Assembly: GCA_017465905.1 (NCBI GenBank)
Contig: JAFTVE010000002.1
Location: forward strand, 14,865 to 78,864
Direction: 5' to 3'
Source: Bacteroidaceae bacterium
Lineage (GTDB): Bacteria; Bacteroidota; Bacteroidia; Bacteroidales; Bacteroidaceae
Length of the DNA stretch: 64,000 nucleotides
In this document: positions 3,133-51,370 of the stretch, piece after piece
How positions within the stretch are numbered: position 1 is the stretch's first letter
Layout: every line of letters begins with the position of its first letter
The notes under the pieces: generated by a model
Told to the model about the DNA's origin: nothing
Databases searched by the model: none
What the model saw: only the letters and a program-made list of their open reading frames with translations
Position numbers and translations under genes: made by a program

Positions 3133-4002
3133 TTAGAAACTGATGCTGCACTGCAGTCCGTAGGACTGGGTGTTGCGTGGCGTGGTGTGTCGCTGTTGGT
3201 CGATGATGCTGGGTCGCACCTGTACGGTGAGGTCTTCGGAGATGTCGAAGTTGGAGAGCTCGGCATCGACATAGGCATCGATGACGGAGATGAGGTATAC
3301 GCCGATGAAGCAGAAGATGCTGAGGTCGCGCTGGCGGCGGTAGTTGTCCTTACGGTTCTTGAAGACGCGCTCCAGGTAGTCGCGGTTGGCCTCCACGTTG
3401 TAGCGGGGTGGGAGGAAGTCCTCGTAGCTGGCGGTGCCGGGGTCGTCGTCCATGAGGTCGAGGTAGCCCTGCGAGTAGTCGCTGTACATCTGGTTGTTCC
3501 AGTTGAGGGCGTAGGCGCAGCCGAGGAAGCCTCCGTAGACGATGGGTAGTTTCCAGTATTTGTGGTTGTAGATCTGTCCGCCTCCGGGGAAGACGATGCC
3601 GGCCCATGTGGCTTTGCCGGGGTCGGGGGTGAAGGTGGCTATCTTCTGCAGGCGCTGCTGGCGACGGGCACTGGGGGCCTTGGGGGCTTTTGTGGTGTCG
3701 GGGGTCGCTGTGCCGGGGGAGGGCTCGGGTGTGTCTGATGGCTTGAGTATGCCCAGCTCGGCCTTTGCGGCGCGGTGGAGCGAGTCGCCCAGGGCGATGG
3801 CGCGTGTCTCGCGCGGTGTGGGGGTGGTGAGGGTGTCGCCCAGGGTGAGACGGCTGTCGCGCAGGGGCTTGAGGGGTTGGCGGTCGCCTGCTCCGAGGGT
3901 GTCGGGCACGAGGGTGTGGGCTTGTGCTGCCAGTGTTGTGGGTAGGCATAGCATCACAAGGAGTAGGAGGGTATGTAGGGCTCTGCTGCTGTGGGGTGTC
4001 AT
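3133..4002 (-). CDS. DUF5683 domain-containing protein
   Basis: Signal peptide followed by GGGQIYNHKYWKLPIVYGGFLGCAYALNWN and C-terminal VIDAYVDAELSNFDIS. Its start overlaps the parB stop (ATGA), the usual Bacteroidales arrangement. Confidence 0.7.
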   Translation of the reverse strand: MTPHSSRALHTLLLLVMLCLPTTLAAQAHTLVPDTLGAGDRQPLKPLRDSRLTLGDTLTTPTPRETRAIALGDSLHRAAKAELGILKPSDTPEPSPGTATPDTTKAPKAPSARRQQRLQKIATFTPDPGKATWAGIVFPGGGQIYNHKYWKLPIVYGGFLGCAYALNWNNQMYSDYSQGYLDLMDDDPGTASYEDFLPPRYNVEANRDYLERVFKNRKDNYRRQRDLSIFCFIGVYLISVIDAYVDAELSNFDISEDLTVQVRPSIIDQQRHTTPRNTQSYGLQCSISF

Positions 4003-4874
4003 TTTTCCTTGAGTTTGTCAAGCAATCCGATGATGCGCTCGAGCTCGCGCTCGTTGTCGAAGGCGATGGCTATCTTGCCCTTGCCTCTGTTGCTGCAGGT
4101 GAGGATGACCTCGGTCTGGAAGTAGTTGGAGAGGTGCTTCTTGAGCATCTCGTAGTCGTTGGCGGGCTTGGGGGGTGTGGCGGCTTGCTTGGCTGCCTTT
4201 GCCTTGCTCTTCTTGATGAGTTCCTCGACCTTGCGTACGGAGTAGCCGAAGGTCTGTATCTCCTCGAAGAGGCGTATCTGCTCTATGGGGTTGTCGAGGG
4301 CGAGGAGTGCGCGGGCGTGGCCCATGTCGAGCTCGCGGTTCTTGAGGGCTACCTGTATCTGTGCGGGGAGCTTGAGCAGGCGCAGGTAGTTGGCGATGGT
4401 GGTGCGTTTCTTGCCTACGCGCTCGCTGAGCTTCTCCTGGGTGAGGCTGTACTCCTCGAGCAGGTGCTGGTAGGCGAGGGCTATCTCCATGGAGTTGAGG
4501 TCCTCGCGCTGTATGTTCTCGATGAGGGCCATCTCCATGACGTTCTCGTCGTCGGCAGTGCGTATGTAGGCGGGCACGGTGGTGAGCCCGGCGAGCTGCG
4601 ATGCACGGAAACGGCGCTCGCCGGCGATGATCTGGTAGGTGCCGTCGTCCATCTTGCGCAGGGTGATGGGCTGTATGATGCCTATCTCCTTGATGGAGTC
4701 GGCGAGCTCCTGCAGTGCCTCGGGGTCGAACTCGCGGCGCGGCTGGTTGGGGTTGGCCTTGATGTGGCTGATGGCTATCTCGCTGATGGAGGATGAGCCT
4801 TCGGTCTTCACCGTGTCGGTGGCGATGAGGGCGTCGAGGCCACGGCCTAAGGAGGGGTATTTCTTGGTTGCCAT
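3999..4874 (-). CDS. parB: chromosome partitioning protein ParB
   Basis: LGRGLDALI, IQPITLRK and GERRFRAS motifs. Start set at MATKKYPSLGRGL; the 30-aa upstream extension in the track is read from the repeat element. Confidence 0.9.
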   Translation of the reverse strand: MATKKYPSLGRGLDALIATDTVKTEGSSSISEIAISHIKANPNQPRREFDPEALQELADSIKEIGIIQPITLRKMDDGTYQIIAGERRFRASQLAGLTTVPAYIRTADDENVMEMALIENIQREDLNSMEIALAYQHLLEEYSLTQEKLSERVGKKRTTIANYLRLLKLPAQIQVALKNRELDMGHARALLALDNPIEQIRLFEEIQTFGYSVRKVEELIKKSKAKAAKQAATPPKPANDYEMLKKHLSNYFQTEVILTCSNRGKGKIAIAFDNERELERIIGLLDKLKEK

Positions 4875-4884
4875 ATCTTTTTTT

Positions 4885-5047
4885 AGTTGAAAGTTGAAAG
4901 ATGAAAGTTGAAAGTAGGCTTCGCGATGTGTTCCCTGCTGGATGACAAAACTTTTATCTTTCACTTTTCAGCGTTTCATTTTTTTAAAGTTATTTTTCTG
5001 AGTTGTAAGTAGGAAAACTTTCATCTTTCATCTTTCCACTTTTTTTA
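4885..5047. repeat. GAAAG-word hairpin element, copy 1 (between parB and the four-helix-bundle gene)
   Basis: AGTTGAAAGTTGAAAGATGAAAGTTGAAAGT ... AAAACTTTCATCTTTCATCTTTCCACT. The terminal arms are imperfect reverse complements. Roughly 90 percent identical, by eye, to copy 2. Confidence 0.9.
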
Positions 5048-5402
5048 TGTTATTATTCTGTTTGCTGGTTTTTATACTTGCAGTAAGTAGTGCTATAAGT
5101 TCTTTTAAATCACTGTACATAGAGCTGAAGTGCTGTTCATCTATAATTCCACTTTCGTGTAGAAGCTCTAACCAATAGGCAGTTTCATCTGCTTCTTTTA
5201 GGGCGATGGATAGTTTGTTGATAAAGTCAGCGCTACTTTGGGCATTGTTGCTTTCTCGTGCATTGGCACCTATGCTGGTCCCGCTACGCAGAATTTGTTT
5301 GGATATAACGCACTCATTCTTCTCTTTTTGGAGATAAGAATAGAAACGTATTATCCTTATTGCAAATTGTTTGCTTTTTTGTAACAATGGTCCGTAACTC
5401 AT
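5028..5402 (-). CDS. four-helix-bundle protein (23S rRNA intervening-sequence protein / Avd-like family)
   Basis: 124 aa. Family-typical SKQILRSGTSIGANARE...ALKEADETAYWLELL. Looks markedly AT-richer than its neighbours. The stop codon lies inside the flanking repeat. Confidence 0.85.
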   Translation of the reverse strand: MSYGPLLQKSKQFAIRIIRFYSYLQKEKNECVISKQILRSGTSIGANARESNNAQSSADFINKLSIALKEADETAYWLELLHESGIIDEQHFSSMYSDLKELIALLTASIKTSKQNNNIKKVER

Positions 5403-5411
5403 AGCTCTCTT

Positions 5412-5582
5412 AGTTGAAAGTTGAAAGATGAAAGTTGAAAGTAGGCTTTGCGATGTGTTTCCTGCCGGATGGCAATAATCTTTCTTCTTTCACTTTTCAG
5501 CGTTTCATTTTTTTAAAGTTATTTTTCTGAGTTGGAAGTAGGAAAACTTTCATCTTTCATCTTTCCACTTTCCACTTTTTTT
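5412..5582. repeat. GAAAG-word hairpin element, copy 2 (between the four-helix-bundle gene and parA; overlaps the parA 3' end)
   Basis: Direct repeat of 4885-5047, offset by 527 bp. Contains the parA stop codon and its last 8 codons. Confidence 0.9.
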
Positions 5583-6332
5583 AATGATTTCCTGTGCCAA
5601 AGTCAAGTAGTTCTGTGCTCCCTTCGACTCGGCATCGTAGAGGATGGCGGGGATGCCGTGGCTGGGGGCTTCGCTGAGGCGTACGTTGCGCTGGATGACG
5701 GTGTCGAACACCAGCTCCTGGAAGTGGCGGCGCACCTCGTCGAGAACTTGGTTGCTCAGGCGCAGGCGTGAATCGTACATCGTGAGCAGGAAGCCCTCGA
5801 TGTTGAGGCCGGGGTTGAGCTTCGACTTGATGATCTTGATGGTGTTGAGCAGCTTGCTGATGCCCTCCAGAGCGAAGTATTCGCACTGTACGGGGATGAT
5901 GACCGAGTGGGCTGCCGTGAGGGCGTTGACCGTGATGAGGCCCAGCGAGGGCGAGCAGTCGATGAGGATGTAGTCGTACTCGTTGACGAAGGGCTCGAGC
6001 ATGCGCTTGAGCACGGTCTCGCGGTGCTCGAGGTTGAGCATCTCGATTTCGGCCCCCACGAGGTCGATGTGTGAGGCTATCACTTCAAGGCCTTCGATAT
6101 CGGTCGTGTATATGGCTTCGCGAGGGTCGCGGCCGTCGATGAGGCATTCGTAGATGGAGCAGTCCACATTGTGGATGTCCACGCCGAGGCCCGATGAGGC
6201 GTTGGCCTGAGGGTCGGCATCGATGAGCAGTACTTTCTTCTCCAGCGTGGCCAGCGAGGCGGCGAGGTTGATGGCGGTAGTGGTCTTGCCCACGCCTCCC
6301 TTCTGGTTGGCCAATGCAATAATCTTTCCCAT
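5550..6332 (-). CDS. parA: chromosome partitioning ATPase ParA/Soj
   Basis: MGKIIALANQKGGVGKTTTAINLAASLA has the deviant Walker A motif, and ParA similarity runs full length. The last 8 codons (SGKWKDER) and the stop are encoded by the repeat element. Confidence 0.93.
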   Translation of the reverse strand: MGKIIALANQKGGVGKTTTAINLAASLATLEKKVLLIDADPQANASSGLGVDIHNVDCSIYECLIDGRDPREAIYTTDIEGLEVIASHIDLVGAEIEMLNLEHRETVLKRMLEPFVNEYDYILIDCSPSLGLITVNALTAAHSVIIPVQCEYFALEGISKLLNTIKIIKSKLNPGLNIEGFLLTMYDSRLRLSNQVLDEVRRHFQELVFDTVIQRNVRLSEAPSHGIPAILYDAESKGAQNYLTLAQEIIKKSGKWKDER

Positions 6333-6610: not shown

Positions 6611-7909
6611 ATGCAAGAGATTATCAACCTCATCAATGAGATGTCGCCCTACCTGCTGCTGGGCTTCGGCATCGCTGGACTGATGCATACGTTTGTGCCT
6701 AACCGCCTGTATAGCCGCTACCTCTCGGGACGCAACTTCCGCTCGGTGCTCTACGCAGCTGCGCTGGGTGTGCCCCTGCCGCTGTGCTCGTGCGGTGTGT
6801 TGCCCACGGCCATGTCGCTCCGTCGGGAGGGGGCCTCGAAGGGTGCCACGACATCGTTTCTCATCGCTACGCCGCAGACGGGTGTAGACTCCATCATGGC
6901 TACCTACTCGCTCATGGGCTTGCCCTTTGCCGTCATACGCCCCGTGGCAGCGCTGGTGACGGCTCTGCTGGGCGGCACGCTGGTGAATGCCTTCGACCGT
7001 GGAGGCGAGCAGGAAGCTCATGCCCCGGCGCAGGAGAGCGAGAGGCACCTCACGCTGAAGGAGAAGGTGGTGGGGGCGCTGCGCTATGGCTATGTCGACA
7101 TGATGCAGGACATCGGCAAGTGGCTCATCATAGGTCTGCTCGTGGCTGGACTCATCACCGTGGCCGTGCCCGACGGCTTCTTTGCGGCCTTTGCCCATCG
7201 CCCCCTGCTGGGCATGCTGCTGGTGCTGGCGTGTGCGGTACCCATGTATCTGTGTGCCACAGGCTCTATCCCCATCGCTGTGGCGCTGATGCTCAAGGGC
7301 ATGACTCCCGGTGCCGCTCTGGTGCTGCTCATGGCGGGGCCGGCGGTGAATGTGGCCTCCATACTCGTCATACGCAAGGTGCTGGGTGGGCGCACCCTGT
7401 GGCTCTATCTCGCTGCCATTGTGGGTGGAGCTATCGCCTTTGCCCTGGGCGTGGACTACCTGCTGCCGCGCGAGTGGTTCACCGAGAGCCTGACAGCTAT
7501 CACGGCATCGTGCCATACGCATACCCCGTGGTTCAATATACTGTGCACAGCCGTCCTTCTGGTCCTGCTCGCTGGTGCACTGGTGCGCAGGTTTGTACGC
7601 AAGACTGCACACGAGGAGTGTGAATGTGGCGGATCGTGCCACGCGGAGGCATGTGAATGTGGCGGCGCGTGCCACGAGGAGGACCCTGTGGCGCAGGAGG
7701 TGAAGAGCCAGGAGAGGGTCTACATCGTCACCGGCATGCACTGCAACCATTGCCGCAACAGTGTGATGCGCGCCGTGGGCAGCCTACCCGGTGTGGAGGC
7801 TGTGGAGGTGGATCTCCAGAGCGGCAGGATGACGGTAAGCGGTACTGCCGAGCCGGGCGAGGTGGTGCAGGCTATCGATGCCTTGGGATTCGGAGGCGAG
7901 CTTGTGTAG
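6611..7909 (+). CDS. SO_0444-type Cu/Zn efflux permease with Cys/His-rich linker and C-terminal HMA domain
   Basis: Multi-TM permease (DUF318/ArsP-like). Contains CECGGSCHAEACECGGACHEE and then an HMA fold, YIVTGMHCNHCRNSVMRAV. Confidence 0.8.
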   Translation: MQEIINLINEMSPYLLLGFGIAGLMHTFVPNRLYSRYLSGRNFRSVLYAAALGVPLPLCSCGVLPTAMSLRREGASKGATTSFLIATPQTGVDSIMATYSLMGLPFAVIRPVAALVTALLGGTLVNAFDRGGEQEAHAPAQESERHLTLKEKVVGALRYGYVDMMQDIGKWLIIGLLVAGLITVAVPDGFFAAFAHRPLLGMLLVLACAVPMYLCATGSIPIAVALMLKGMTPGAALVLLMAGPAVNVASILVIRKVLGGRTLWLYLAAIVGGAIAFALGVDYLLPREWFTESLTAITASCHTHTPWFNILCTAVLLVLLAGALVRRFVRKTAHEECECGGSCHAEACECGGACHEEDPVAQEVKSQERVYIVTGMHCNHCRNSVMRAVGSLPGVEAVEVDLQSGRMTVSGTAEPGEVVQAIDALGFGGELV

Positions 7910-11317: not shown

Positions 11318-11408
11318 TAATTCTGAATTCTGAATTCTGATTTTTGAATTCTAAACATGGCTGTTTATAATGGATAATGTAGAATTCACGATTCAGAATT
11401 AGAAATCA
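11318..11408. repeat. imperfect palindrome built from GAATTC/TGAATTC words
   Basis: TTAATTCTGAATTCTGAATTCTGATTTTTGAATTCTAAACA ... TGTAGAATTCACGATTCAGAATTAGAAATCA. Fills the spacer between two co-directional genes. Confidence 0.8.
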
Positions 11409-14394: not shown

Positions 14395-15360
14395 TGTGTT
14401 TGAAATGTTTTAGTTTTGCCTATAAGTTCTCCCGATTCGGCGATATGTATTATTTAAAACAAAAAAGCGTGAGAACCTGTACCTGTTGCTCGTCTCACGT
14501 TCTGAGGCCTTCGCATTGCCCGATTAGTCGAAACGAGCAACGCAGACCTCACGCCGATATGAATATATAACCACACTATACCCACCACGGTTGCGGTAAG
14601 GTATAATAAAGGAATATAAAAAACATATCCCGTGACATCTACTGTTGCTTTGTCTTTGACTAATCGTTAGAAGTTGCGAAGTTCCAGAACGTCAAAACCA
14701 AAGCGTCAAGTAAACGCCTTTCCACTATGTCGTCCCCGCCCAGCCACCCTAATCTCCAATAAAGAATCAAGGCATCGGCGCGAAGATGGAGCAAAGGTAA
14801 TAATAAATTGATAATTGACAAATGACAATTAACAATTATTTTCTTGCATCTTAAAAGAAACGCAATGAAGATATTTACACCCAACCCAGAGGGCAAGCAA
14901 CATCCACCGCAACAATCTCCAAGGTTTTCGAGGAATAGGCGTAGGTGTACCTTGAAGGCCTTGGGGATTTGCTCTCCGAATAACCTTAAGGAATCACAAG
15001 AATCATTTTGACATACGTCATAGCATGCTATCATCGCAGACTGCCTGATGGCAACCATGAAACGAAGTTCTCCATTATGAACCGTATCCAATGTTTGCCC
15101 CCGGCAAAACAGCTTGTACCCCTTGGCAGAAAGGTTTGTCAAAGGAGGTTTCTGCCAAGAGTATACAAACTGAATATGTGTATGTTATATATATTAAGGA
15201 ATCGCGCTTGCGCCTCTTGAGACCTGCATTATAGTAATTTTTCGTTTGGGGCCTGGCAGAGTTGAATTGACAATTGAAAATAGACAATTGAGAATTCCTA
15301 GTAGGCACTCACGTCAGCTTTGTCCATCAACCATCAACCACCATCCATCATCCATCAACT

Positions 15361-15441: not shown

Positions 15442-16083
15442 CTAAAACCTCCCCGGCGCCGGGGCATAGAAGCGGCTGTTCTTGCGGCCGAGGGCGCGTA
15501 GGTAGCCTTCGTCGACCAGCTCGTTGAGGTACTTGAGGGCAAGGTGCTTGGAGCATTCGCACAGTTGCTCCATCTGTGAGCGGTAGATGTAGGGGTGGTC
15601 GGCAAAGAAGGTAGCCAGGCGATGCTCCACGATGGTGCGGGTGAGCAGGGTGCGCACGGCATGGCCTCCGCTCACAATCTCGGCGCCGCGCAGCTCCTCC
15701 TTCAGCTCCTTGCAGGGGCGGAAGCTGATGCCCTTGACGATGACGTCGCGCTGGGTGACGCGGTCGTTGAAGTACTTGGGCTCCTTGAGGCCCAGTTTGA
15801 GGCCGAACGAACCAATCTCGTCGATCTGCACGGTGCGTCCATCGAGGAGTGCGCGGCTCAGCTCGTGCCCCAGGGCTGTAAGCACGGCCACCACGTCTAC
15901 CTTGTTGACGCTGGTGGCGAAGCCTATGCGCTCGGCCATCTCCTTGGTGGTCACTGGGGTGGAGGCTACTACGCTCACACCCATCAGGGGGTTCTTCTCG
16001 GTGGCTTCGCCCTGGAGGTCGTACCTCGGGTTCAGCTGGTAGGCAATCGTGCCACTCTTCTTTGTCGCTTTGGTCTTTCTCAT
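15442..16083 (-). CDS. HU-family (Bacteroidales HU_2-type) DNA-binding protein with C-terminal extension
   Basis: TKEMAERIG...VDVVAVLTALGHELSRALLDGRTVQIDEIGSFGLKL matches the HU-like fold. ATG at comp(16081-16083) is preferred over the upstream GTG. Confidence 0.65.
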   Translation of the reverse strand: MRKTKATKKSGTIAYQLNPRYDLQGEATEKNPLMGVSVVASTPVTTKEMAERIGFATSVNKVDVVAVLTALGHELSRALLDGRTVQIDEIGSFGLKLGLKEPKYFNDRVTQRDVIVKGISFRPCKELKEELRGAEIVSGGHAVRTLLTRTIVEHRLATFFADHPYIYRSQMEQLCECSKHLALKYLNELVDEGYLRALGRKNSRFYAPAPGRF

Positions 16084-16408
16084 AAGTTCTCTTTTTTTTA
16101 TAACCACGGATTACTCAGATTACTCAAATTTACGGCAATTCTTTGCATTGCGCCGAAGTCATAGTGTTTTTATCTGTGCAATCTGTGTAATCGGTGGTTT
16201 TTATTCGTATTTCAAGCTGTCCGTTGGCGACCATACACGCAGATTGACGCGAGCGTATGCGTGTACCGACGCGTACAAACGCACGTATGTACGCCAACAG
16301 ACGCACTCGAATTCGGTTACAAATTTAAGAAAAGACAAGCAATCTTGCAAGTCTTTTCCTCTGATTTTATGCGGATTAGTGGGTGTTGACATCGGGATTC
16401 TGATGTGG

Positions 16409-16416
16409 TATCTTTG
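16409..16416 (+). promoter_or_regulatory. -7 box TATCTTTG (distal, virE-like gene)
   Basis: One of two identical TATCTTTGCA boxes (the second is at 16512-16519). Each is followed by an ACGAT-word leader. Confidence 0.4.
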
Positions 16417-16511
16417 CAAAGAAAACGGAGTTTTCAACGATAATGAAGACGATGACGATAACTTTCTTCTGTAGCGTATCAAATGCAGAATAAACGGTTG
16501 GTGAGGTGCCG

Positions 16512-16519
16512 TATCTTTG
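16512..16519 (+). promoter_or_regulatory. -7 box TATCTTTG (proximal, virE-like gene)
   Basis: 65 nt upstream of the ATG at 16584. Confidence 0.45.
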
Positions 16520-16583
16520 CATTGTCAACGAAAAACGATAACGAAAATGAAAACGATGACGTACACCATATTTATTATATACT

Positions 16584-17912
16584 ATGAAAAGATTTTTTGT
16601 TAATGCAATCAACTGGCTGCGAAGCAGAGTAACAGCCATCATGAGGGAAGAGAGAAGAGTGAAAAGGGAAAACCCGAACCCAGAGCCATCACCAGTTACG
16701 TATGACCAAACGCCGTTTGGTCCGCATGCTGCACCGGCAGGTCACGACTCAACATTGCTCCGCGCCGAGGAGTACATCACCGAGCACTACCACCTGCGCT
16801 ACAATCGCCTGAGCCGCGAGCACGAGCTGTGCGAGCGGGAAGGTGGCGCTGCTGCATGGAAGGTACTCGACGAGGCACTGTGCTGCACGTTGCTGATGGA
16901 GATGCAGCATGCTGGCATCGGGCTGAGCAAGCCCTATCTGGTGCGCACCGTGGTGCGGGGCTACAAGCAGGTGGCGCACTACCACCCTGTATGCAGCTAC
17001 CTTGATGCGCTGCCCCAGTGGGATGGGCGCGACCATATCGGTGACCTCTTCCGCCGCATCACTCACGATGATCAGCTGCTGCTATGGCTGCGCCGCTGGC
17101 TGCTGGGCATGGTGGCGCAGGTGCAGGGCCGTCTGGGGCGGTATGGCAACAGCGTGTGTCCGCTCATCATCAGCCGCCAGCAGGGATGGGGAAAGAGCCA
17201 GTTTGCCAAGCTCATCGTGCCGCCCGAGCTGCAGATGTTCTTCGCCGACACCTTCAACCTCGCTCAGGAGGAGACCTGTCTGCGCCGCATGGCCTCGTAC
17301 TGGCTCATCAATGTGGATGAGCTGGACCGCTTCTCGACGCTGCGCATGGCCACGCTGAAAAACCTGGTGCAGCTGGCCACCATCACGCTGAAGCGCCCTC
17401 ACCGCGGACAGATGGAGGAGATGGAGCGCATGGCCTCGTTCATCGCCACCAGCAACCGCCGCTACCTGCTGCGCGACGAGACGGGTAGCCGCCGCTTCAT
17501 CTGCGTGGAGCTGGAGGCGCCCATCGATGTGGCTACGCCCGTAGGCCATGCCCAGCTCTATGCACAGGCGCTGGCAGCCCTCGCGGCAGGCGAGCGCAGC
17601 TGGTTCGACGATGCCGAGGTGCGCCTCATCGAAGCCCACAACCAGGGCTTCTCTACCCAACGAGGCGTGTGGGACCTGCTGCTCAGCACCTTCGAGCCGT
17701 GCGAGGTGCCCGACTCGATGGAGGAGCGCCAGGCACAGCTCTGGCCAGCCACGCATGTCTACGACTGCCTGCGCGAGATGTCGCCTTCGGCCATGGAGGG
17801 CATCGAGCGCACCACCTTCGGGTGGTATCTCAAGGAGATCGGTGCTCAGCAAGTGCGCGTGGACAATCGCCGGCTCTGGGCGGTGAGGAAGATTGCCAAT
17901 GCCAGGGGGTAA
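16584..17912 (+). CDS. VirE-family (virulence-associated E / primase-helicase-like) P-loop protein
   Basis: PQWDG, QQGWGKSQF (Walker A), WLINVDELD (Walker B-like) and SRRFICVEL are typical of the VirE/DUF3874-type proteins common in Bacteroidales. Confidence 0.7.
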   Translation: MKRFFVNAINWLRSRVTAIMREERRVKRENPNPEPSPVTYDQTPFGPHAAPAGHDSTLLRAEEYITEHYHLRYNRLSREHELCEREGGAAAWKVLDEALCCTLLMEMQHAGIGLSKPYLVRTVVRGYKQVAHYHPVCSYLDALPQWDGRDHIGDLFRRITHDDQLLLWLRRWLLGMVAQVQGRLGRYGNSVCPLIISRQQGWGKSQFAKLIVPPELQMFFADTFNLAQEETCLRRMASYWLINVDELDRFSTLRMATLKNLVQLATITLKRPHRGQMEEMERMASFIATSNRRYLLRDETGSRRFICVELEAPIDVATPVGHAQLYAQALAALAAGERSWFDDAEVRLIEAHNQGFSTQRGVWDLLLSTFEPCEVPDSMEERQAQLWPATHVYDCLREMSPSAMEGIERTTFGWYLKEIGAQQVRVDNRRLWAVRKIANARG

Positions 17913-19292: not shown

Positions 19293-19380
19293 AACTATGA
19301 TCTATGATTTATGATTTCTTTTTCGGAGTTCTCGGAGCTCTCTGAGTGCTCTGAGTATCAGAGTTCTCCGAGTGCTTTGA
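19293..19380. repeat. simple-word spacer (ATGATYT and CTCGGAG/CTCTGAG words)
   Basis: AACTATGATCTATGATTTATGATTTC...CGGAGTTCTCGGAGCTCTCTGAGTGCTCTGAGTATCAGAGTTCTCCGAGTGC. Fills the whole aminotransferase-ribBA spacer. Confidence 0.8.
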
Positions 19381-24291: not shown

Positions 24292-24330
24292 TAATCTGCA
24301 ATTGGCAACTTGCAATTTGTAAATACAGGC

Positions 24331-29440: not shown

Positions 29441-30634
29441 CTATCTCTTTGTTCCCATGAGCAGCTCCACCATCTTCTCGGCTGTGTGCTCAGAGGCGCC
29501 CGGCTCACCCAGCGGGGCAATCACCATTTTGTCATACTCGTCGAACATACGGTTGCGGTAGAAGTCATCAAGGAGCAAACGGTCGAGTTCCTCGGTCAGT
29601 TCACGCTCGCGCATCTCATGCGCAACAAGTTCGCGCACCAAGGGGAAGTTTGCCACGAGATTTACCAGCGAGATGTATTCAACTTTCAGCACTAGGCTGC
29701 GTAGCCACGAAACCACCTTTCCACACATGATATAGTAGCAAACTACCTGTGGCACACGGAATAGGGCTGTTTCCAGCGTTGCCGTTCCCGAGGTGACCAT
29801 GGCTGCATACGAATGGCTCAGCAGGGCATAGGTCTCGCCATAGACCACAAAGAGTCCCTCCTTGGAAGGGTATGCGTTGGAGGCTTGTCCATACATCTCC
29901 TTGTCTATGCCTGGCGCTCCGGCTATCACCCACTGGAATCCCTTGATTCGCTCTCTGCGGTGTATCCTTCCTGGCTTGAAGTGCTTGGTTGCGGTGAGCA
30001 TGACGGGGAGGTTGTCCTTGATCTCTTGCTTGCGGCTTCCTGCGAGCAGTGCCACGATGGGTAGTTCGGGGTTGAGGCCATGGCGTGCGCAAAACTCCTC
30101 GCGGGTCTCGGTATATTGGGCCTTGAATTCGGCCACTGCATCTACGCAGGGATTGCCCACATAGTGGATGGGGTAGCCGTGACTGGCGTAGAAGGGCACC
30201 TCGAAGGGGAGGATGGAGAACATTTCATCGACGTAGCGGCGTATGTCCTTGATGCGATACTCCTTCCATGCCCATATCTTGGGAGATATGTAGTAGTATA
30301 CGGGTATTTGCGTGTGGGTCTTCACATACTTGGCGATAGAGAGGTTGAATCCTGGGTAGTCGACCAGTATGACTACGTTGGGAGCCCACGCTGCAATGTC
30401 CTCTTTGCACAGGCGCATGTTGCGCAGTATGGTGCGTGCGTGTAGTGCTACCTGCACGAATCCCATGTAGGCTAGCTCACGGTAGTGCTTTACCAATGTG
30501 CCGCCTACAGCCTGCATAAGGTCACCTCCGAAGAAGCGGAACTCCGCTTCGGGATCCTTGGCCTTGAGCGCTCGCATCAGGTTCGATGCGTGCAGGTCGC
30601 CCGAGGCCTCGCCTGCGATGATGTAGTATTTCAT
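29441..30634 (-). CDS. lpxB: lipid-A-disaccharide synthase
   Basis: MKYYIIAGEASGDLHASNLM N-terminus and full-length LpxB similarity. Confidence 0.9.
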   Translation of the reverse strand: MKYYIIAGEASGDLHASNLMRALKAKDPEAEFRFFGGDLMQAVGGTLVKHYRELAYMGFVQVALHARTILRNMRLCKEDIAAWAPNVVILVDYPGFNLSIAKYVKTHTQIPVYYYISPKIWAWKEYRIKDIRRYVDEMFSILPFEVPFYASHGYPIHYVGNPCVDAVAEFKAQYTETREEFCARHGLNPELPIVALLAGSRKQEIKDNLPVMLTATKHFKPGRIHRRERIKGFQWVIAGAPGIDKEMYGQASNAYPSKEGLFVVYGETYALLSHSYAAMVTSGTATLETALFRVPQVVCYYIMCGKVVSWLRSLVLKVEYISLVNLVANFPLVRELVAHEMRERELTEELDRLLLDDFYRNRMFDEYDKMVIAPLGEPGASEHTAEKMVELLMGTKR

Positions 30635-30715
30635 TGTTTATTACTTGCTTTTTAAAGGTTTTCCTAGACAGTCCTAGGGGTTCCTAGGATAGCTAATGAC
30701 AACTTGGAATAATCA

Positions 30716-31489
30716 TCATCCCAAGTCCCAACTGTTTTCCATCTCCTCTATCATGCGATAGTCGGTCATGTCAATCTGTATGGGAGTCACGGCCACGTAG
30801 CCCTCGGTAAGGTTGGGGCGGTCGGCATCGTGCGGATGGTCGTCGCGTAAGCAGAAGCTGCCTACTAGCCAGAAGTAGTTCCCACCGCGCGGATGCGGAT
30901 GTTCTTCCCACTCCTGAGTCCACTCGCCCCGTGCCATACGGCATACCTTCACGCCTTCGTAGATGGGCGTGGCGGGGAAGTTGACATTGAGGCAGGTGCC
31001 ATTAGGCAGACCATGCTCAAGTATCTGCTCCACGATTTTCACGATATAGGGGGCACAAGGTTCGAAGTCGGCTTCGGGTGAATGGTTGTCGAGCGAGAAC
31101 CCAACCGAGGGAATGCCCTTCATGCAGCCTTCGATGACGATGCCCATGGTACCCGAGTAGTGTACGTTGACTCCTGAGTTGTCGCCGTGGTTGATGCCAC
31201 CGATAATCATGTCGGGCTGACGGTCAGCAAACTCATGCAGCGCCATCTTGATGCAGTCGACAGGAGTACCTGAGCAGCGGTAAATGGTGGTTCCCTCGCG
31301 CTCGCTTACCAGGTTGTAGTACACCGGTTGGGTGGAGGTGATGGCGCATCCCATTCCTGAACGTCCTCCGTCGGGAGCCATCACGAGAATGTCGGCTATT
31401 GGTGACAACAGCTCGGCTAAGAAGTTGATGCCTCGTGCCTTGTAGCCATCATCGTTTGAGAGCAGTATTAATGGTCTTTCGTTGTCCAT
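30716..31489 (-). CDS. surE: 5'/3'-nucleotidase SurE
   Basis: ILLSNDDGY and GINHGDN motifs. -7 box near 31567-31580. Confidence 0.9.
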   Translation of the reverse strand: MDNERPLILLSNDDGYKARGINFLAELLSPIADILVMAPDGGRSGMGCAITSTQPVYYNLVSEREGTTIYRCSGTPVDCIKMALHEFADRQPDMIIGGINHGDNSGVNVHYSGTMGIVIEGCMKGIPSVGFSLDNHSPEADFEPCAPYIVKIVEQILEHGLPNGTCLNVNFPATPIYEGVKVCRMARGEWTQEWEEHPHPRGGNYFWLVGSFCLRDDHPHDADRPNLTEGYVAVTPIQIDMTDYRMIEEMENSWDLG

Positions 31490-31834
31490 ATGTAGATCTT
31501 TTTTGAGTATCGCAAGCTGTTGTCGCTTGTCGGTGAATCGTGTTGTCGTGTAGAAGAAAACTGTACTGCAAAATTACGAAATCGTCCACATGCATGCAAG
31601 GTTTTGGATAGAAAGTTGTTTTCAAGTGCCCTGAAAATGGCAGCAATCGACTTGTTCTCTATTGCAATGTGTGAGATCTCTCACTTTCGAGATGGACACT
31701 ATCCTTCAACCCTTAACCGATAACCCTTAACCCCTCACTTTTTAGCCCTAAATAGAAGCCGCTCTACGGCTTGCCGCGCCTTCGACAAGGCTGAATAAAT
31801 GGTAAATCTCTGATGGCATGGCGATAAGAGAGCG

Positions 31835-45775: not shown

Positions 45776-45901
45776 TTATTTACAATTTTACAATTTACTA
45801 TTTACGATTTATTGTGCGATTTAGTTATTTACAATTTCAGCATCGCGAAATTCAAATTGACGAATAATTAAATTGTCAAATCAATTGTAAATTGTAATTG
45901 G
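45776..45901. repeat. about 125-bp imperfect palindrome built from TTACAAT/ATTGTAA words
   Basis: Left half has TTTACAATTTTACAATTTACTATTTACGATTT...; right half has ...AAATTGTCAAATCAATTGTAAATTGTAATTGG. Centre AATTTCagcatcgcGAAATT. Confidence 0.75.
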
Positions 45902-48652
45902 TTAAATAGTAAATTTCGCAATTGTCTCCTTAATCGCAGCAATCTTGCTCTCGGCATCGGCCTGCTTCTTGCGCTCGGCGGCTACTACGGCTTCGGGGGC
46001 ATTGCTTACAAAACGTTCGTTGGAAAGTTTCTTCATCACTGAGTTAAGGAAACCTTCGAGGTAGGTGAGCTCGGCCTGCAGCTTGGCAACTTCGGCCTCT
46101 ACATCGATGAGGCTGCCCAGAGGTACGGCATACTCGGTGGTGCCTACCATGAATGATGAGGTACCCTCGCTCTTGGCTTCTACTACATTGATAGCTTCGA
46201 GGTTGGCCATCTTCTCAATAATTGCATTGTAGGTAGCTACAGCGTGATTGCCTACCACTTCAAGGCTGAGCGCCTCCTTCTGCGCGATGTTCTTCTGCAA
46301 ACGGATGGTGCGCACGCCACTGATAATGCTCTTTACGGTCTCGATGTCGGCTATGAGCTGCTCGTCGTACTTGTCGGCAAAAATCTTTACGCTTTGTGTC
46401 ATGATGCTCTCGCCGGGCTTGCGTTCCTCGATAGCTTGCCACAACTCTTCGGTGATGAAGGGCATGAAGGGGTGGAGCAGGCGAAGCAGGGCGTCGAAGT
46501 AGTGAAGTGTGGCATCGTAGGTCTGCTTGTCGATAGCACAACCGTAGGCGGGCTTCACAATCTCAAGATACCAGCTGGAGAACTCATCCCAGAACAGGCG
46601 GTATATAGCCATCAGTGCCTCGCTCAAGCGGTACTTGCTCATCAGGTCGTCCACCTCGAGGGCTGTCTTGGTGAGCATAGCATCGAACCACTGGCAACCC
46701 AAGCGGGCAGCCTCGGGCTGAGCGATGGTGGCATCTACATTCCAACCCTTTACGAGGCGGAAGGCGTTCCAAATCTTGTTGTTGAAGTTACGGCCCTGCT
46801 CGCAGAGTGCATCATCGAAGAGGATGTCGTTGCCGGCAGGAGCGCAGAGCATCATACCCATACGCACGCCATCGGCACCATACTGGGCGATGAGGTCGAG
46901 CGGGTCGGGCGAGTTGCCGAGGCTCTTCGACATCTTGCGTCCCAGCTTGTCGCGTACGATACCGGTGAAGTATACATTCTTGAATGGCATGTCGCCCTTG
47001 TACTCGTAGCCTGCCATAATCATACGGGCTACCCAGAAGAAGATGATGTCCGGGCCAGTCACCAGGTCTGAGGTGGGGTAGTAGTAGTTGAGTTCGGCAT
47101 TGTCGGGGTTGTTGATACCGTCAAACAGTGAGATGGGCCACAGCCATGATGAGAACCATGTGTCGAGGGCATCCTCGTCCTGACGCAGCTCAGCAGCTGT
47201 AATATTCTCGTATCCCTCAATCTTGCGGGCCAACTCAACGGCTTCGTTAATGCTCTCGGCTACTACGAAGGCCTCCTCGGCACCCTCTGCGGTGGGCAGG
47301 AAGTAGGCCGGTATGCGGTGTCCCCACCAGAGCTGACGACTGATGCACCAGTCCTGAATGTTCTCCAACCAGTTGTTGTAGGTGGTCTTGTACTTGGCGG
47401 GGTAGAATTTGAGTTCGTCGTTCATTACGGGCGGCAGGGCGATGTCGGCAAAGTGCTGCATACGGAGGAACCACTGCATGCAGAGACGCGGCTCAACGGC
47501 TGTGTCGGCATTGCGCTCCGAGTAGCCCACCTTGTTGTCGTAGTCTTCCACCTTCTCGAGCAGACCAGCAGCTTCGAGGTCCTTGGCGATGAGGCGGCGC
47601 ACCTCCATGCGGTCCTTGCCTACATAGAGTCCGGCTTCCTCGCTCAGTGTGCCGTCGGGGTTGAAGATGTCGATAGTCTCCAGATTGTGCTTCTTGCCCA
47701 GCATGTAGTCATTGGTGTCGTGAGCAGGAGTCACCTTCAAGCAACCTGTACCGAACTCGATGTCTACGTAGCGGTCCTCGATGACAGGAATCTCGCGACC
47801 TACGAGCGGTACGATGACCTTCTGTCCCTTGAGCCAAGTGTTCTTGGGGTCCTTGGGGTTGATACACATGGCCGTGTCGCCCATGATGGTCTCGGGGCGA
47901 GTGGTAGCCACTACGGCGTAGTAACCTTTCTCGTCTTTGTGGATGACGTTGTCGAGTTGAAAGTTGAAAGATGAAAGTGGAGAGTGGCCGTCCGGATGGC
48001 AACTTTCATCTGTCATCTTTCCACTTTCCACTTGTCCTACCACATAATACTTCAGATAATACAGCTTGCTCTTCTCCTCCTTGTATATTACCTCTTCGTT
48101 GGAGAGGGCAGTCTGTGCCTTGGGGTCCCAGTTTACCATGCGCAGGCCGCGGTAGATAAGCCCCTTGTTGTAGAGGTCTACGAACACCTTGATGACGCTT
48201 GCGCTGCGCTTCTCGTCCATGGTGAAGGCCGTACGGTCCCAGTCGCATGAGGCACCCAGCTTACGCAATTGCTTGAGGATGATGCCGCCGTGCTCGTCGG
48301 TCCACTCCCAAGCATGCTTGAGGAACTCCTCACGGGTGAGGTCGCTCTTCTTGATGCCCTGTTCGGCGAGCTTCTTCACCACCTTGGCTTCGGTAGCGAT
48401 AGAGGCATGGTCGGTACCCGGTACCCAGCAAGCATTCTTGCCCAGCATACGTGCGCGGCGCACGAGAATGTCCTGGATGGTATTGTTTAGCATGTGTCCC
48501 ATGTGAAGCACACCCGTCACGTTGGGTGGGGGAATGACCACTGTATAGGGCTCGCGGCCGTCGGGCTCAGAGTGGAAGAGTTTGTTGTCTAACCAATATT
48601 GATACCATTTACCCTCAACATCCGTGGGGTTGTATTTGCTTGCTAATTCCAT
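45902..48652 (-). CDS. valS: valine--tRNA ligase (contains an in-frame repeat-derived insert)
   Basis: [13 protein letters not shown] (HIGH), KMSKSLGN (KMSKS), [10 protein letters not shown], and a C-terminal coiled coil. 916 aa. Confidence 0.95.
47954..48031. repeat. GAAAG-word hairpin element, short 78-bp copy inside the valS coding sequence
   Basis: First 24 nt AGTTGAAAGTTGAAAGATGAAAGT are identical to 4885-4908 and 5412-5435. The loop keeps CCGGATGGCAA. The right arm AACTTTCATCTGTCATCTTTCCACTTTCCAC is similar to about 5545-5575. Confidence 0.85.
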
Positions 48653-49790: not shown

Positions 49791-49855
49791 ATCAAGATTC
49801 CTTGCTTGCTTGGCAGAGTAATAATAAGTTTTACTCTACTCTCGCTACGCTGCGG
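49791..49855 (-). repeat. 65-nt bipartite conserved motif, copy B (gmd-fcl spacer)
   Basis: Minus strand reads CCGCAGCGTAGCGAGAG-N23-TGCCAAGCAAGCAAGGAATCTTGAT. Preceded on that strand by an (AATTGTG/AATTGTC)n-type array at 49856-49920. Confidence 0.8.
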
Positions 49856-49920
49856 AATTGTGAATTGTGAATTGTCAATTGTGAATTGTGAATTGTGAAT
49901 TGTCAATTGTCAATTGTCAA
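49856..49920. repeat. tandem heptamer array (AATTGTG/AATTGTC), about 9 units
   Basis: GAATTGTGAATTGTGAATTGTCAATTGTGAATTGTGAATTGTGAATTGTCAATTGTCAATTGTCAATT, immediately after the gmd stop codon. Confidence 0.9.
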
Positions 49921-51048
49921 TTACTTCACTATTCCCTTCTCCAGATACTCCACCAGGTTGGTGCGTATGCTCTCTCCGGCACGTTCTACGGCTACCTTGG
50001 CCATATCGGCATCCACCATAATCTTTACCAGTTCCTCGAAGGTCGTTTTCTGAGGGTTCCAGCCGAGCTTCTCTTTCGCTTTGGATGGGTCGCCCCAAAG
50101 ATTGACGACGTCGGTGGGGCGGAAGAAATCGGCAGATACCTCAATCAGTACATCTCCCACTGTCAGTCGCTTATTCACAGCCGATAGCTGGGGAGTGATG
50201 CTCTTGATGACACCCTTCTCGTCGGCCCCTTCACCTACGAACTCCAGCTCGATGCCTACGTGCTTGAACGCATAGTAGCAGAAGTCGCGCACCGAGTGCT
50301 GTATGCCGGTGGCGATGACGAAGTCCTCAGGCTTGTCGTTCTGCAGCATCAGCCACATACATTCCACGTAGTCCTTGGCATATCCCCAGTCGCGCAGCGA
50401 TGACAGGTTGCCCAGATATAGCTTGCTTTGTTTACCCTGGGCAATGCGTGCCGCAGCAAGGGTTATCTTGCGTGTGACGAAGGTCTCGCCACGGCGCTCG
50501 CTCTCGTGATTGAAGAGGATGCCCGAGCAGCAAAACATGTTGTATGCCTCGCGGTACTCCTTCACTATCCAGTGGCCGTACAGCTTGGCTACAGCATACG
50601 GACTATAGGGGTGGAAGGGTGTTTCCTCGTTCTGAGGCACTTCCTCTACCTTGCCGTACAGTTCCGATGTAGAAGCCTGGTAGATGTGGCATGTATCGGC
50701 CAAGCCGCTGAGACGTACAGCTTCGAGGATGCGCAATACTCCGGTGGCATCTACATTGGCCGTAAACTCGGGTGAGTCAAAGCTCACCTGCACGTGGCTC
50801 TGTGCAGCGAGGTTGTATATCTCGTCGGGACGCACCTTGCTAATAACCCGAATCAGGCTCATGGAGTCGCCCAGGTCGGCATAGTGGAGGTGAAATTTCG
50901 GCTGCCCCTCAAGGTGTGCTATACGTTCGCGATAGTCTACCGATGAGCGGCGTATAGTACCATGTACCTCGTATCCTTTGCTTAAAAGAAACTCAGAAAG
51001 GAACGAACCGTCCTGACCGGTGATACCGGTTATCAAAGCTGTTTTCAT
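49921..51048 (-). CDS. gmd: GDP-mannose 4,6-dehydratase
   Basis: [26 protein letters not shown] and NHESERRG motifs. -7 box at 51072-51079. Confidence 0.95.
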
Positions 51049-51071: not shown

Positions 51072-51079
51072 CAAAATTA
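51072..51079 (-). promoter_or_regulatory. -7 box TAatTTTG for gmd
   Basis: Plus strand CAAAATTA, 24 nt upstream of the ATG at 51048. TTGC lies about 20 nt further upstream, in the -33 position. Confidence 0.55.
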
Positions 51080-51370
51080 GTGCAAGCCGAGAGAAAATGC
51101 AAGCTTGCTTAATATTATTTTCTTCCTTGTCACTCGGCAGAGATTGTGTAAGCCCATCTCTGCTCTCGTTCCTGCGTCAGTTGCAATTTTCCGAGGCGCA
51201 GCCTAATTTCTGGCCTGCATAGCAGGACTAAAGATAGTGCAAGCCGAGAGAAAATGCAAGCTTGCTTAATTTTATTTTCTTCCTTGTCACTCGGCATAGA
51301 GATTAGGCAAGCCCATCTCTGCTCTCGTTCCTGCATTAGTTGCAATTTTCCGAGGCGCCGCCTAATTTCT
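51079..51370. repeat. two direct repeats of about 134 bp (period 157 bp), each carrying a promoter-like module
   Basis: 51079-51211 and 51236-51370 align with few mismatches (AGTGCAAGCCGAGAGAAAATGCAAGCTTGCTTAAT...CCGAGGCGC.GCCTAATTTCT). Confidence 0.85.

Follow-up and report, generated by a model that had tools for sequence, protein, structure and literature searches.

A PF05635 gene enclosed by inverted heptamer arrays is inserted between parA and parB in a member of the Bacteroidaceae

Open reading frames (ORFs) of the S23p family (PF05635) occur in intervening sequences (IVS) of 23S rRNA genes, for instance in Coxiella burnetii and Leptospira, where the ORF is enclosed by terminal inverted repeats with a stem of about 28 bp (PMC4990558). 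In Coxiella two to three tandem GACAGAT heptamers precede the S23p ORF, and the 28-bp stem is cut by RNase III at the first repeat (PMC4990558). Genes of the family have also been seen 'intruding', for reasons left unexplained, in cas operons and in rRNA genes (PMC3936711, PMC11270868), and the family is homologous to Avd of the diversity-generating retroelements (DGRs) (PMC10053308). The family itself, the rRNA IVS and the presence of these four-helix-bundle (4HB) genes within cas operons and at scattered rRNA sites are therefore already known. Here we analyze a 64,000-nucleotide stretch of a Bacteroidaceae genome (contig JAFTVE010000002.1; hereafter the window), in which a 4HB gene of this family lies in the spacer between parA and parB, enclosed by inverted arrays of heptamers.

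The 4HB gene XCC0516 of Xanthomonas encodes an S23p protein with a solved structure. In the published Xanthomonas catalogue a four-unit heptamer array lies 6 nt from bccP (XCC0517) and overlaps the start of XCC0516, and no paired inverted partner is flagged for this array (supplement of PMC4692102). Heptameric simple repeats of this sort, namely the cyanobacterial STRR and the G-rich heptamers of Xanthomonas and Nostoc, resemble the arrays of our locus in that they are transcribed, lie between genes, have a period of 7 and a variable length, and often form convergent inverted pairs; unlike them, they have been treated as free-standing, in terms of G-quadruplexes and polymerase slippage, with no link made to PF05635 genes (PMC4692102). 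Our survey of the literature, which left most subscription journals uncovered so that an earlier description is possible, found no link between heptamer repeats and PF05635 genes outside rRNA, the Coxiella description aside.

In the window parA and parB are separated by 675 nt (4875-5549, from the parA stop to the parB ATG), and all genes of the locus lie on the minus strand. In sense order the features are:

parA, 5550-6332, minus strand, 260 aa; Pfam AAA_31 (E 1.6e-69), also CbiA
Hairpin module copy B, on the parA side, 5410-5583, minus strand; in sense order an A-run, arm 1 (5546-5576), a spacer, a degenerate arm, a loop with CCGGATGG (5465-5472) and arm 2 (5412-5442)
4HB gene, 5028-5402, minus strand, 124 aa; PF05635/TIGR02436, GC 37%
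Hairpin module copy A, on the parB side, 4883-5049, minus strand; arms 4885-4915 and 5016-5042, loop motif 4937-4944
parB, 3999-4874, minus strand, 291 aa, ATG at 4874; Pfam ParB_N (E 3e-37), HTH_ParB

The GC content is 0.32-0.42 over 4800-5600 as against 0.58-0.63 in parA and parB. Three samples (L001, L002 and L003) gave the identical structure in independent assemblies, so it is not an assembly artefact. The two modules that bracket the 4HB gene are AT-rich direct copies of 165-175 nt, about 94% identical to each other: positions 4948-5042 match 5477-5571 at 96% (offset 529) and 4883-4955 match 5410-5482 at 90% (offset 527) in ungapped comparison, and blastn aligns copy A with copy B at 93.8% identity over 162 nt, with copy A being one heptamer shorter. 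Their arms consist of GAAAGNN heptamers with a period of 7 and are 26-31 nt long with 90-92% complementarity, as would be expected of an IVS stem (92% for 4890-4915 with 5017-5042 in copy A; 90% for 5412-5442 with 5546-5576 in copy B). Copy A is predicted to fold as RNA with -35 kcal/mol (z -3.7), and copy B with -42.5 kcal/mol (z -4.4). Allowing up to three mismatches the arm pattern has 6 matches in the window, where shuffled sequences predict 0.00, and only three hairpin copies with this pattern occur in the 64 kb. The third of these, copy C, is a short hairpin within valS that is taken up below. Each module is composite, with a good arm, an inner hairpin resembling copy C (the CCGGATGG loop and a degenerate second arm), a T-run, a spacer of ~35 nt and a second good arm; it thus contains a nested copy of the short hairpin also found in valS. 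The inner 100 nt of the module have no match elsewhere among ~240 loci. The two copies differ at 15 positions, the differences being of mixed type and not adenine-specific, and AAAAAAAG stands on both sides of copy A as well as of the whole composite. The two direct copies may go back to gene conversion, to a local duplication, or to a circle that integrated by a Campbell-type event into a hairpin already resident there.

Both upstream genes terminate inside an arm. The last eight codons of parA (5553-5576) and its stop codon (5550-5552) are supplied by arm 1 of copy B, such that the product ends ...EIIKKSGKWKDER, i.e. KKSGKWKDER before the stop; the 4HB product ends ...NNNIKKVER, with its last four codons and stop inside arm 1 of copy A. 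The parB ATG follows 10 nt past the final arm. An earlier note on this DNA had worked from the letters and the ORF list, and its description of a split parA-parB pair with a 124-aa 4HB gene between direct copies of a GAAAG-armed hairpin, in which both genes end, is borne out by the coordinates, the C-termini, the repeat identities and the family scores that follow.

The 4HB protein matches Pfam PF05635 with an E-value of 4.9e-27 and 94.7 bits (cut-off 33.8), and TIGR02436 with 107.6 bits (cut-off 24). Its closest solved structure is PDB 2RLD of Bacteroides thetaiotaomicron, which it matches over residues 7-116 (E 1.2e-32); as this entry has five chains, the sequence match predicts a four-helix bundle that assembles as a pentamer. 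The motif (G)xxRxxxSxxxNxxE described for the family (PMC3936711) is present as R39-S43-N47-E50 in ...ILRSGTSIGANARES..., with the leading glycine replaced by glutamine, and the R-S-N-E residues are invariant across all 13 aligned relatives. The ORF is under strong purifying selection: dN/dS is 0.06-0.25 overall and 0.19-0.25 in the closer pairs, and against the sister-lineage locus L004 dN is 0.085 with dS saturated. The GC content of the gene remains 37% in hosts of 52-61% GC.

To place the locus in its evolutionary setting we collected 80 related loci, with a ParB identity of 69-85%, by a ParB scan of metagenome contigs. The 4HB gene is found in none of these 80, and nearly all have 3-50 nt between parA and parB, with 100-130 nt of other small repeats instead at two. 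Hence the gene has been inserted between an ancestrally adjacent parA and parB, as the earlier note had proposed, and the outcome it had named as contrary, with relatives all carrying the gene without repeats, is not what is seen, since most relatives are without the gene. At the closest empty sites ParA ends ...EIIKKNG, ...KKNTN or ...KKNK. Through look-ups of close 4HB homologues we additionally recovered four sister-lineage loci (L004, L234 and L236 among them) that carry the 4HB gene at an identical junction, ATCATTAAAAAAAGT[T/G]GAAAG. Their ParA is 94.6% identical to that of the window and the junction reads ...ATCATTAAAAAAAGTTGAAAG, but ParA ends ...KKS because the arm reads GTTGAAAG, which contains a TGA; in the window the corresponding GTGGAAAG has lost the TGA, whereby ParA is lengthened by SGKWKDER. 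This tail is therefore non-native and read from the element, in agreement with the earlier note. The best reading of the shared junction is that the cassette was inserted once, in the common ancestor of the window lineage and the sister lineage.

The sister loci show a simpler form of the cassette. In L234 arm 1 (GTTGAAAGTGGAAAGATGAAAGATGAAAG) is followed by a 51-nt leader, the ORF, a 21-nt trailer, arm 2, 8 nt and the parB ATG, and arm 2 is the exact complement of arm 1 save for one base. There is thus a single long-range stem around the ORF, as against two full hairpins in the window, and the two hairpin modules are specific to the window's lineage. L004 and L234 are also without the A-run on the parB side, so there is no target-site duplication in them. 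Several smaller features were seen at these loci. In the empty-site lineage L203-L218 two GAAAG words (GAAAGctGAAAG) lie in a 31-nt parA-parB spacer, which could be a chance purine-rich ribosome-binding region or an array footprint or seed. A second family of small palindromic repeats (...TTCGTGCAAGCGAGCG...GAAGTTCGACGAAGTCAAAG...) nests in cassette trailers and in one otherwise empty parA-parB spacer (L004 4390-4430, L236 2885-2965, L140 2395-2470, L057 and L087), often abutting GAAAG arrays. In the window parA and an ArsP/HMA permease gene (6611-7909) are divergent neighbours. In the sister lineage (L004, L234 and L236) surE-lpxB lies directly upstream of parA, whereas in the window it is 23 kb off, at 29441-31489; the lineages accordingly differ by a rearrangement at the par locus.

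Examination of relatives of the 4HB gene at other junctions revealed that inverted heptamer arrays bracket all those examined, which come from six bacterial phyla and comprise 13 loci of metagenomes and all nine isolate replicons that were inspected. The repeated word varies from locus to locus (GAAAGNN, GGAGAAT, TTGAGAA, AGCAAAG and GTGAAGA among those seen) and the upstream and downstream arrays nevertheless remain reverse complements; in the par cassettes they read GAAAGNN upstream and NNCTTTC downstream. The closer relatives (79-84% amino acid identity, codon alignment) lie on many contigs between argF' and argB, which code for OTCase and acetylglutamate kinase. More distant ones are found at hsdS-hsdR (two lineages), tsaD-cinA and protease-hexapeptide-transferase junctions. 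4HB genes between hsdS and hsdR of type I restriction-modification operons were seen in unrelated lineages (L224, L229-L232 and L241), the hosts being a high-GC metagenome-assembled genome (MAG), a MAG labelled Chloroflexi, and Monoglobus, in which the ORF is a pseudogene. Every one of them uses a heptamer word of its own. The isolate loci came from a protein search of complete plasmid and replicon records in PLSDB, of which nine were inspected:

Treponema saccharophilum: upstream GAAAGNG, more than 40 units; downstream CGCTCTC
Bernardetia: upstream GTGATTA, 17 units; downstream TAATCAC
Nostoc punctiforme and Nostoc HK-01: upstream GTCGGAG; downstream CGACCTC
Nostoc flagelliforme and Dolichospermum: upstream TAATTCG; downstream TTACGAA
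Euhalothece: upstream CCAGTGA; downstream CTGGTCA, 13 units
Planktothrix: upstream AATCCCC and AATCGTA; downstream CGATTTA
Monoglobus: upstream AATTAGG; downstream CCTAATT; hsdS-hsdR junction, ORF a pseudogene

Of 44 flanks, 42 have their strongest periodicity at lag 7, and the z-score of the upstream/downstream duplex is mostly between -3 and -11.5. As a control, all 47 genes of the window were ranked by flank complementarity: the 4HB gene comes first, and no other has period 7 on both sides. The general unit is therefore one upstream and one downstream array in inverted orientation, as in L234 and L004. The flanking repeats that the earlier note had proposed to look for at other 4HB genes are present at every one examined; its two direct hairpin copies are limited to the window's lineage, and the spread by recombination between copies that it had offered as inference finds no direct support. 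The clades of the 4HB protein correspond to loci, with identities of 87% inside the par clade, 84-88% inside the arg clade and about 80% between the two, which indicates that the insertions are old and vertically inherited rather than recent hops. The arrays by comparison change fast, as their length differs among loci with 100% identical 4HB proteins (L011, L012 and L016); it varies among the arg loci.

The placement of the cassette relative to transcription is also consistent across loci. Of 14 independent contexts, 13 have the downstream neighbour in the same orientation as the 4HB gene, and 11 the upstream neighbour. In 18 of 22 loci, not all of which are independent, the sense strand of the upstream arm is rich in purines. 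The stop codon of the upstream gene lies inside this purine-rich arm, and the downstream arm ends 6-15 nt ahead of the next ATG. No sigma-70-like promoter site and no terminator-like site was detected in the cassette, and the Bacteroidetes -7 box TAnnTTTG does not occur on the sense strand from 6500 to 4800. A 751-nt transcript is predicted to fold with -167 kcal/mol (z -4.7) into nested long-range stems that pair outer arm with outer arm and inner with inner around the ORF, although co-transcriptional folding would favour two local hairpins instead. An Rfam search of the window returned no known RNA family at gathering score or E <= 1, and no rRNA.

In its overall organization the cassette thus has much in common with the rRNA IVS bearing S23p ORFs, a likeness to which the earlier note had pointed and which the Coxiella IVS strengthens by having an ORF of the same family behind tandem heptamers in an RNase III-cleaved stem (PMC4990558). 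In both, a PF05635 ORF is enclosed by terminal inverted repeats with a stem of comparable length, the 5' arm is made of tandem heptamers whose number varies between strains (the Coxiella word GACAGAT even occurs here too, beside GAAAGAT), the ORF has no promoter of its own, and versions without an ORF exist. Unlike the IVS, however, which occupy 23S rRNA helix 9, 25 or 45, the cassette lies in the spacer of an mRNA operon, with its short form even in a coding frame, and in the window it has a full hairpin on each side instead of one stem. The ORF is here under strong selection whereas that of Coxiella is decaying, and RNase III excision, shown for the rRNA IVS, is for the present cassette only an inference.

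The short form of the element is represented by copy C:

Copy C, 47955-48035, minus strand; short hairpin without an ORF, with the same arms and CCGGATGG loop motif, within valS (45902-48652)

This hairpin is translated in frame within valyl-tRNA synthetase (ValRS). Relative to the T. thermophilus enzyme (1GAX) the window's ValRS has 34 residues without a counterpart, including 31 between the conserved YYV and VIHKD, and copy C codes for most of these 31, at the junction with the editing domain. Across about 60 relatives this site is hypervariable, with 15-35 unrelated residues and one sequence without an insert, and in a ValRS of 90% identity it is taken by another in-frame hairpin, which is GC-rich and codes for 29 aa. 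GAAAG hairpins also occur in two other genes of other genomes, in frame and in the same reading frame, where they code for a peptide of the form ESGKM.(D/V)ES...LSS.N.(Q)L; the in-frame loci noted are the window's valS, L237, L051 7527-7599 and L108 4586-4642. The Rickettsia palindromic elements (RPE) are likewise palindromic repeats inserted in frame. Copy C and its relatives in L051 and L108 resemble them in being short palindromes in frame in housekeeping genes, translated and surviving only in the stop-free frame; they differ in that the arms are heptamer arrays and the family also has an ORF-bearing form.

The window is also rich in intergenic arrays of period 7 made of many other words, such as AATTCTG, AATTGAC, CCATCAA, ATTTACA/AATTGTA and GAATTGT (9.7 units), at 11319-11400, 14806-15359, 16644-16672, 19296-19317, 24293-24319, 31703-31733, 45778-45915 and 49855-49922. 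Several pair as long inverted hairpins, one of which (-43.6 kcal/mol) spans the 3' end of valS, and none encloses an ORF. Genes for a HU-HIG domain protein (15442-16083) and a VapE-like primase/helicase (16584-17912) adjoin the arrays at 14806-15359, and this region (15442-17912) may be the remnant of a small integrated element. Two further low-GC intergenic repeats are a 159-nt tandem repeat of 1.9 copies with 93% identity (51078-51370) and an array of 22/44-nt repeats (2840-2939).

Taking together the insertion, the complementary arms, the co-orientation, the lack of a Bacteroidetes-type promoter box, the stop within the arm, the distance of ~10 nt to the next ATG, the purifying selection and the common bracket, we favour, with a probability of about 0.6, an IVS-type cassette in an operon spacer: a promoterless PF05635 ORF within inverted heptamer arrays that is transcribed by read-through and whose stem probably acts on RNA. 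Transcription would proceed from parA, and the arms would pair in the RNA either locally or across the ORF. By analogy with the 23S rRNA IVS, the paired arms might be an RNase III substrate that separates the 4HB message from those of parA and parB. Alternatively or additionally, they might hide the purine-rich, Shine-Dalgarno-like upstream array until ribosomes ending parA open the stem. In the window's lineage each arm has been built out into a full local hairpin by the two module copies. The action at the RNA level is suggested by the homologous rRNA IVS and by the orientation and polarity of the cassettes.

Several observations weigh against this IVS-type reading. A wobble test on the sense strand of 23 arm pairs gave 44 G.U against 59 A.C mismatches (p 0.17); with G.U thus not outnumbering A.C, the test gives no sign that a helix of sense RNA is selected base by base, and the complementarity of the arms may instead be kept by a copying process at the DNA level. 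The duplex score, calculated with a fixed flank length, is weak at two loci, L005 and L012. A genome scan for GAAAG arrays recovered at least 120 loci in many phyla, with a 4HB gene nearby in only 3 of 120 by hidden Markov model and motif search; the arrays were accordingly rejected as a marker of 4HB genes, and the association is one-way, in that a 4HB gene implies arrays but not the converse. Given that the 4HB clades follow locus, recent mobility of the cassette is not demonstrated. Finally, it would be costly to have a cut within the transcript of an essential operon, or within valS in the case of copy C.

The in-frame hairpins and the negative wobble test make a DNA-level role of the arms a serious rival, albeit one that we consider rather doubtful. 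The arrays would then be the ends of a mobile element used in recombination or transposition, either as terminal inverted repeats like those of MITEs (miniature inverted-repeat transposable elements) or as single-stranded hairpins like those of integron attC, REP/RAYT and IS200/IS605, with the 4HB gene as cargo or accessory and the short hairpins as non-autonomous forms. Such an element would account for the presence/absence polymorphism at parA-parB, for the recurrence of these arms and this loop motif, in one constant frame, within three genes that are unrelated and come from three genomes, for the different hairpin at the exact valS site of the 90%-identical enzyme, and for the small repeats nested in cassette flanks (L004, L236 and L005). 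Of the features expected of a MITE, inverted arms are present, but with only three copies in 64 kb where many near-identical dispersed ones and no ORF would be typical; AAAAAAAG suggestively flanks copy A and the whole composite, but the target-site duplication is inconsistent, L004 and L234 being without the parB-side A-run. Moreover, no transposase, integrase, reverse transcriptase or Y1 nuclease is encoded among the 47 ORFs of the window or beside the 4HB loci, and the ends are arrays of variable number whose word differs by locus, unlike a conserved enzyme site. The strong orientation and purine polarity relative to transcription, and the clades that follow locus, also speak against it. 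Integron cassettes in particular have a promoterless ORF co-oriented with its neighbours and imperfect attC hairpins in direct orientation, and in this the window's cassette is similar. We rejected this assignment because the window has no integrase (IntI) and the arm word GTTGAAA, with a purine at position 7, misfits the attC core GTTRRRY / RYYYAAC; in addition, parA and parB are core genes and not cassettes. A viral origin was likewise rejected, as the search gave a single chance match among 2.9 million viral contigs and the protein only two weak phage matches, and PADLOC returned no match to a defence system.

It is unlikely that the cassette is instead a domesticated regulatory spacer, whose hairpins stabilise or attenuate the transcript and uncouple ParA from ParB, the 4HB protein being an incidental host factor. 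Array slippage could on this account make the coupling phase-variable, since 7 is not a multiple of 3, and the array length does vary, both at loci with identical 4HB proteins and among Coxiella strains; a single arm base alters the ParA C-terminus (KKS versus KKSGKWKDER); the ORF is selected; and ORF-less heptamer hairpins are common between genes of the window. Yet most relatives have no cassette at parA-parB, and the same bracket surrounds 4HB genes at unrelated junctions and in 23S rRNA, so that it goes with the gene rather than with par regulation; the low GC (37%) moreover persists in the 52-61% GC hosts. A DGR remnant, with the 4HB protein as Avd and the direct repeats as a template repeat/variable repeat (TR/VR) pair, is highly improbable in spite of the homologous four-helix-bundle fold (PMC10053308) and the two ~165-nt direct repeats flanking the gene. 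No reverse transcriptase (RVT domain) is encoded by the 47 window ORFs or at the related loci, the repeats lie outside any target gene, and their 15 differences are mixed rather than the adenine-specific ones of a TR/VR pair; on these grounds the DGR candidate was rejected.

More tentatively, PF05635 genes with inverted heptamer arrays could together constitute one pan-bacterial class of selfish, spacer-dwelling cassettes that colonise non-coding junctions which are transcribed, such as rRNA helices, operon spacers, and cas and restriction-modification operons, with the 4HB pentamer acting on the stem. The pentamer might bind the heptamer stem, or it might bring a polymerase or nuclease to it in the way that Avd recruits the reverse transcriptase of DGRs, and the ORF-less hairpins (in valS, ilvD-like and other genes) might be non-autonomous or decayed derivatives. 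If this were true, such cassettes would be one source of the excess of heptameric repeats (STRR etc.) in cyanobacteria, Bacteroidota and Xanthomonas.

PF05635 proteins, which abound in Bacteroidota and cyanobacteria, have no known function outside DGRs. The constant signature of inverted arrays, co-orientation and placement from stop to start unites the scattered sightings of their genes into one definable element, and links these genes to the 7-nt tandem repeats that are over-represented in bacterial genomes. The cassettes may break metagenome assemblies, as many close 4HB and ValS relatives are partial or on short contigs. They also have consequences for the proteins of their hosts, in that they alter C-termini, as in ParA, and in their short forms insert peptides into essential enzymes such as ValRS.

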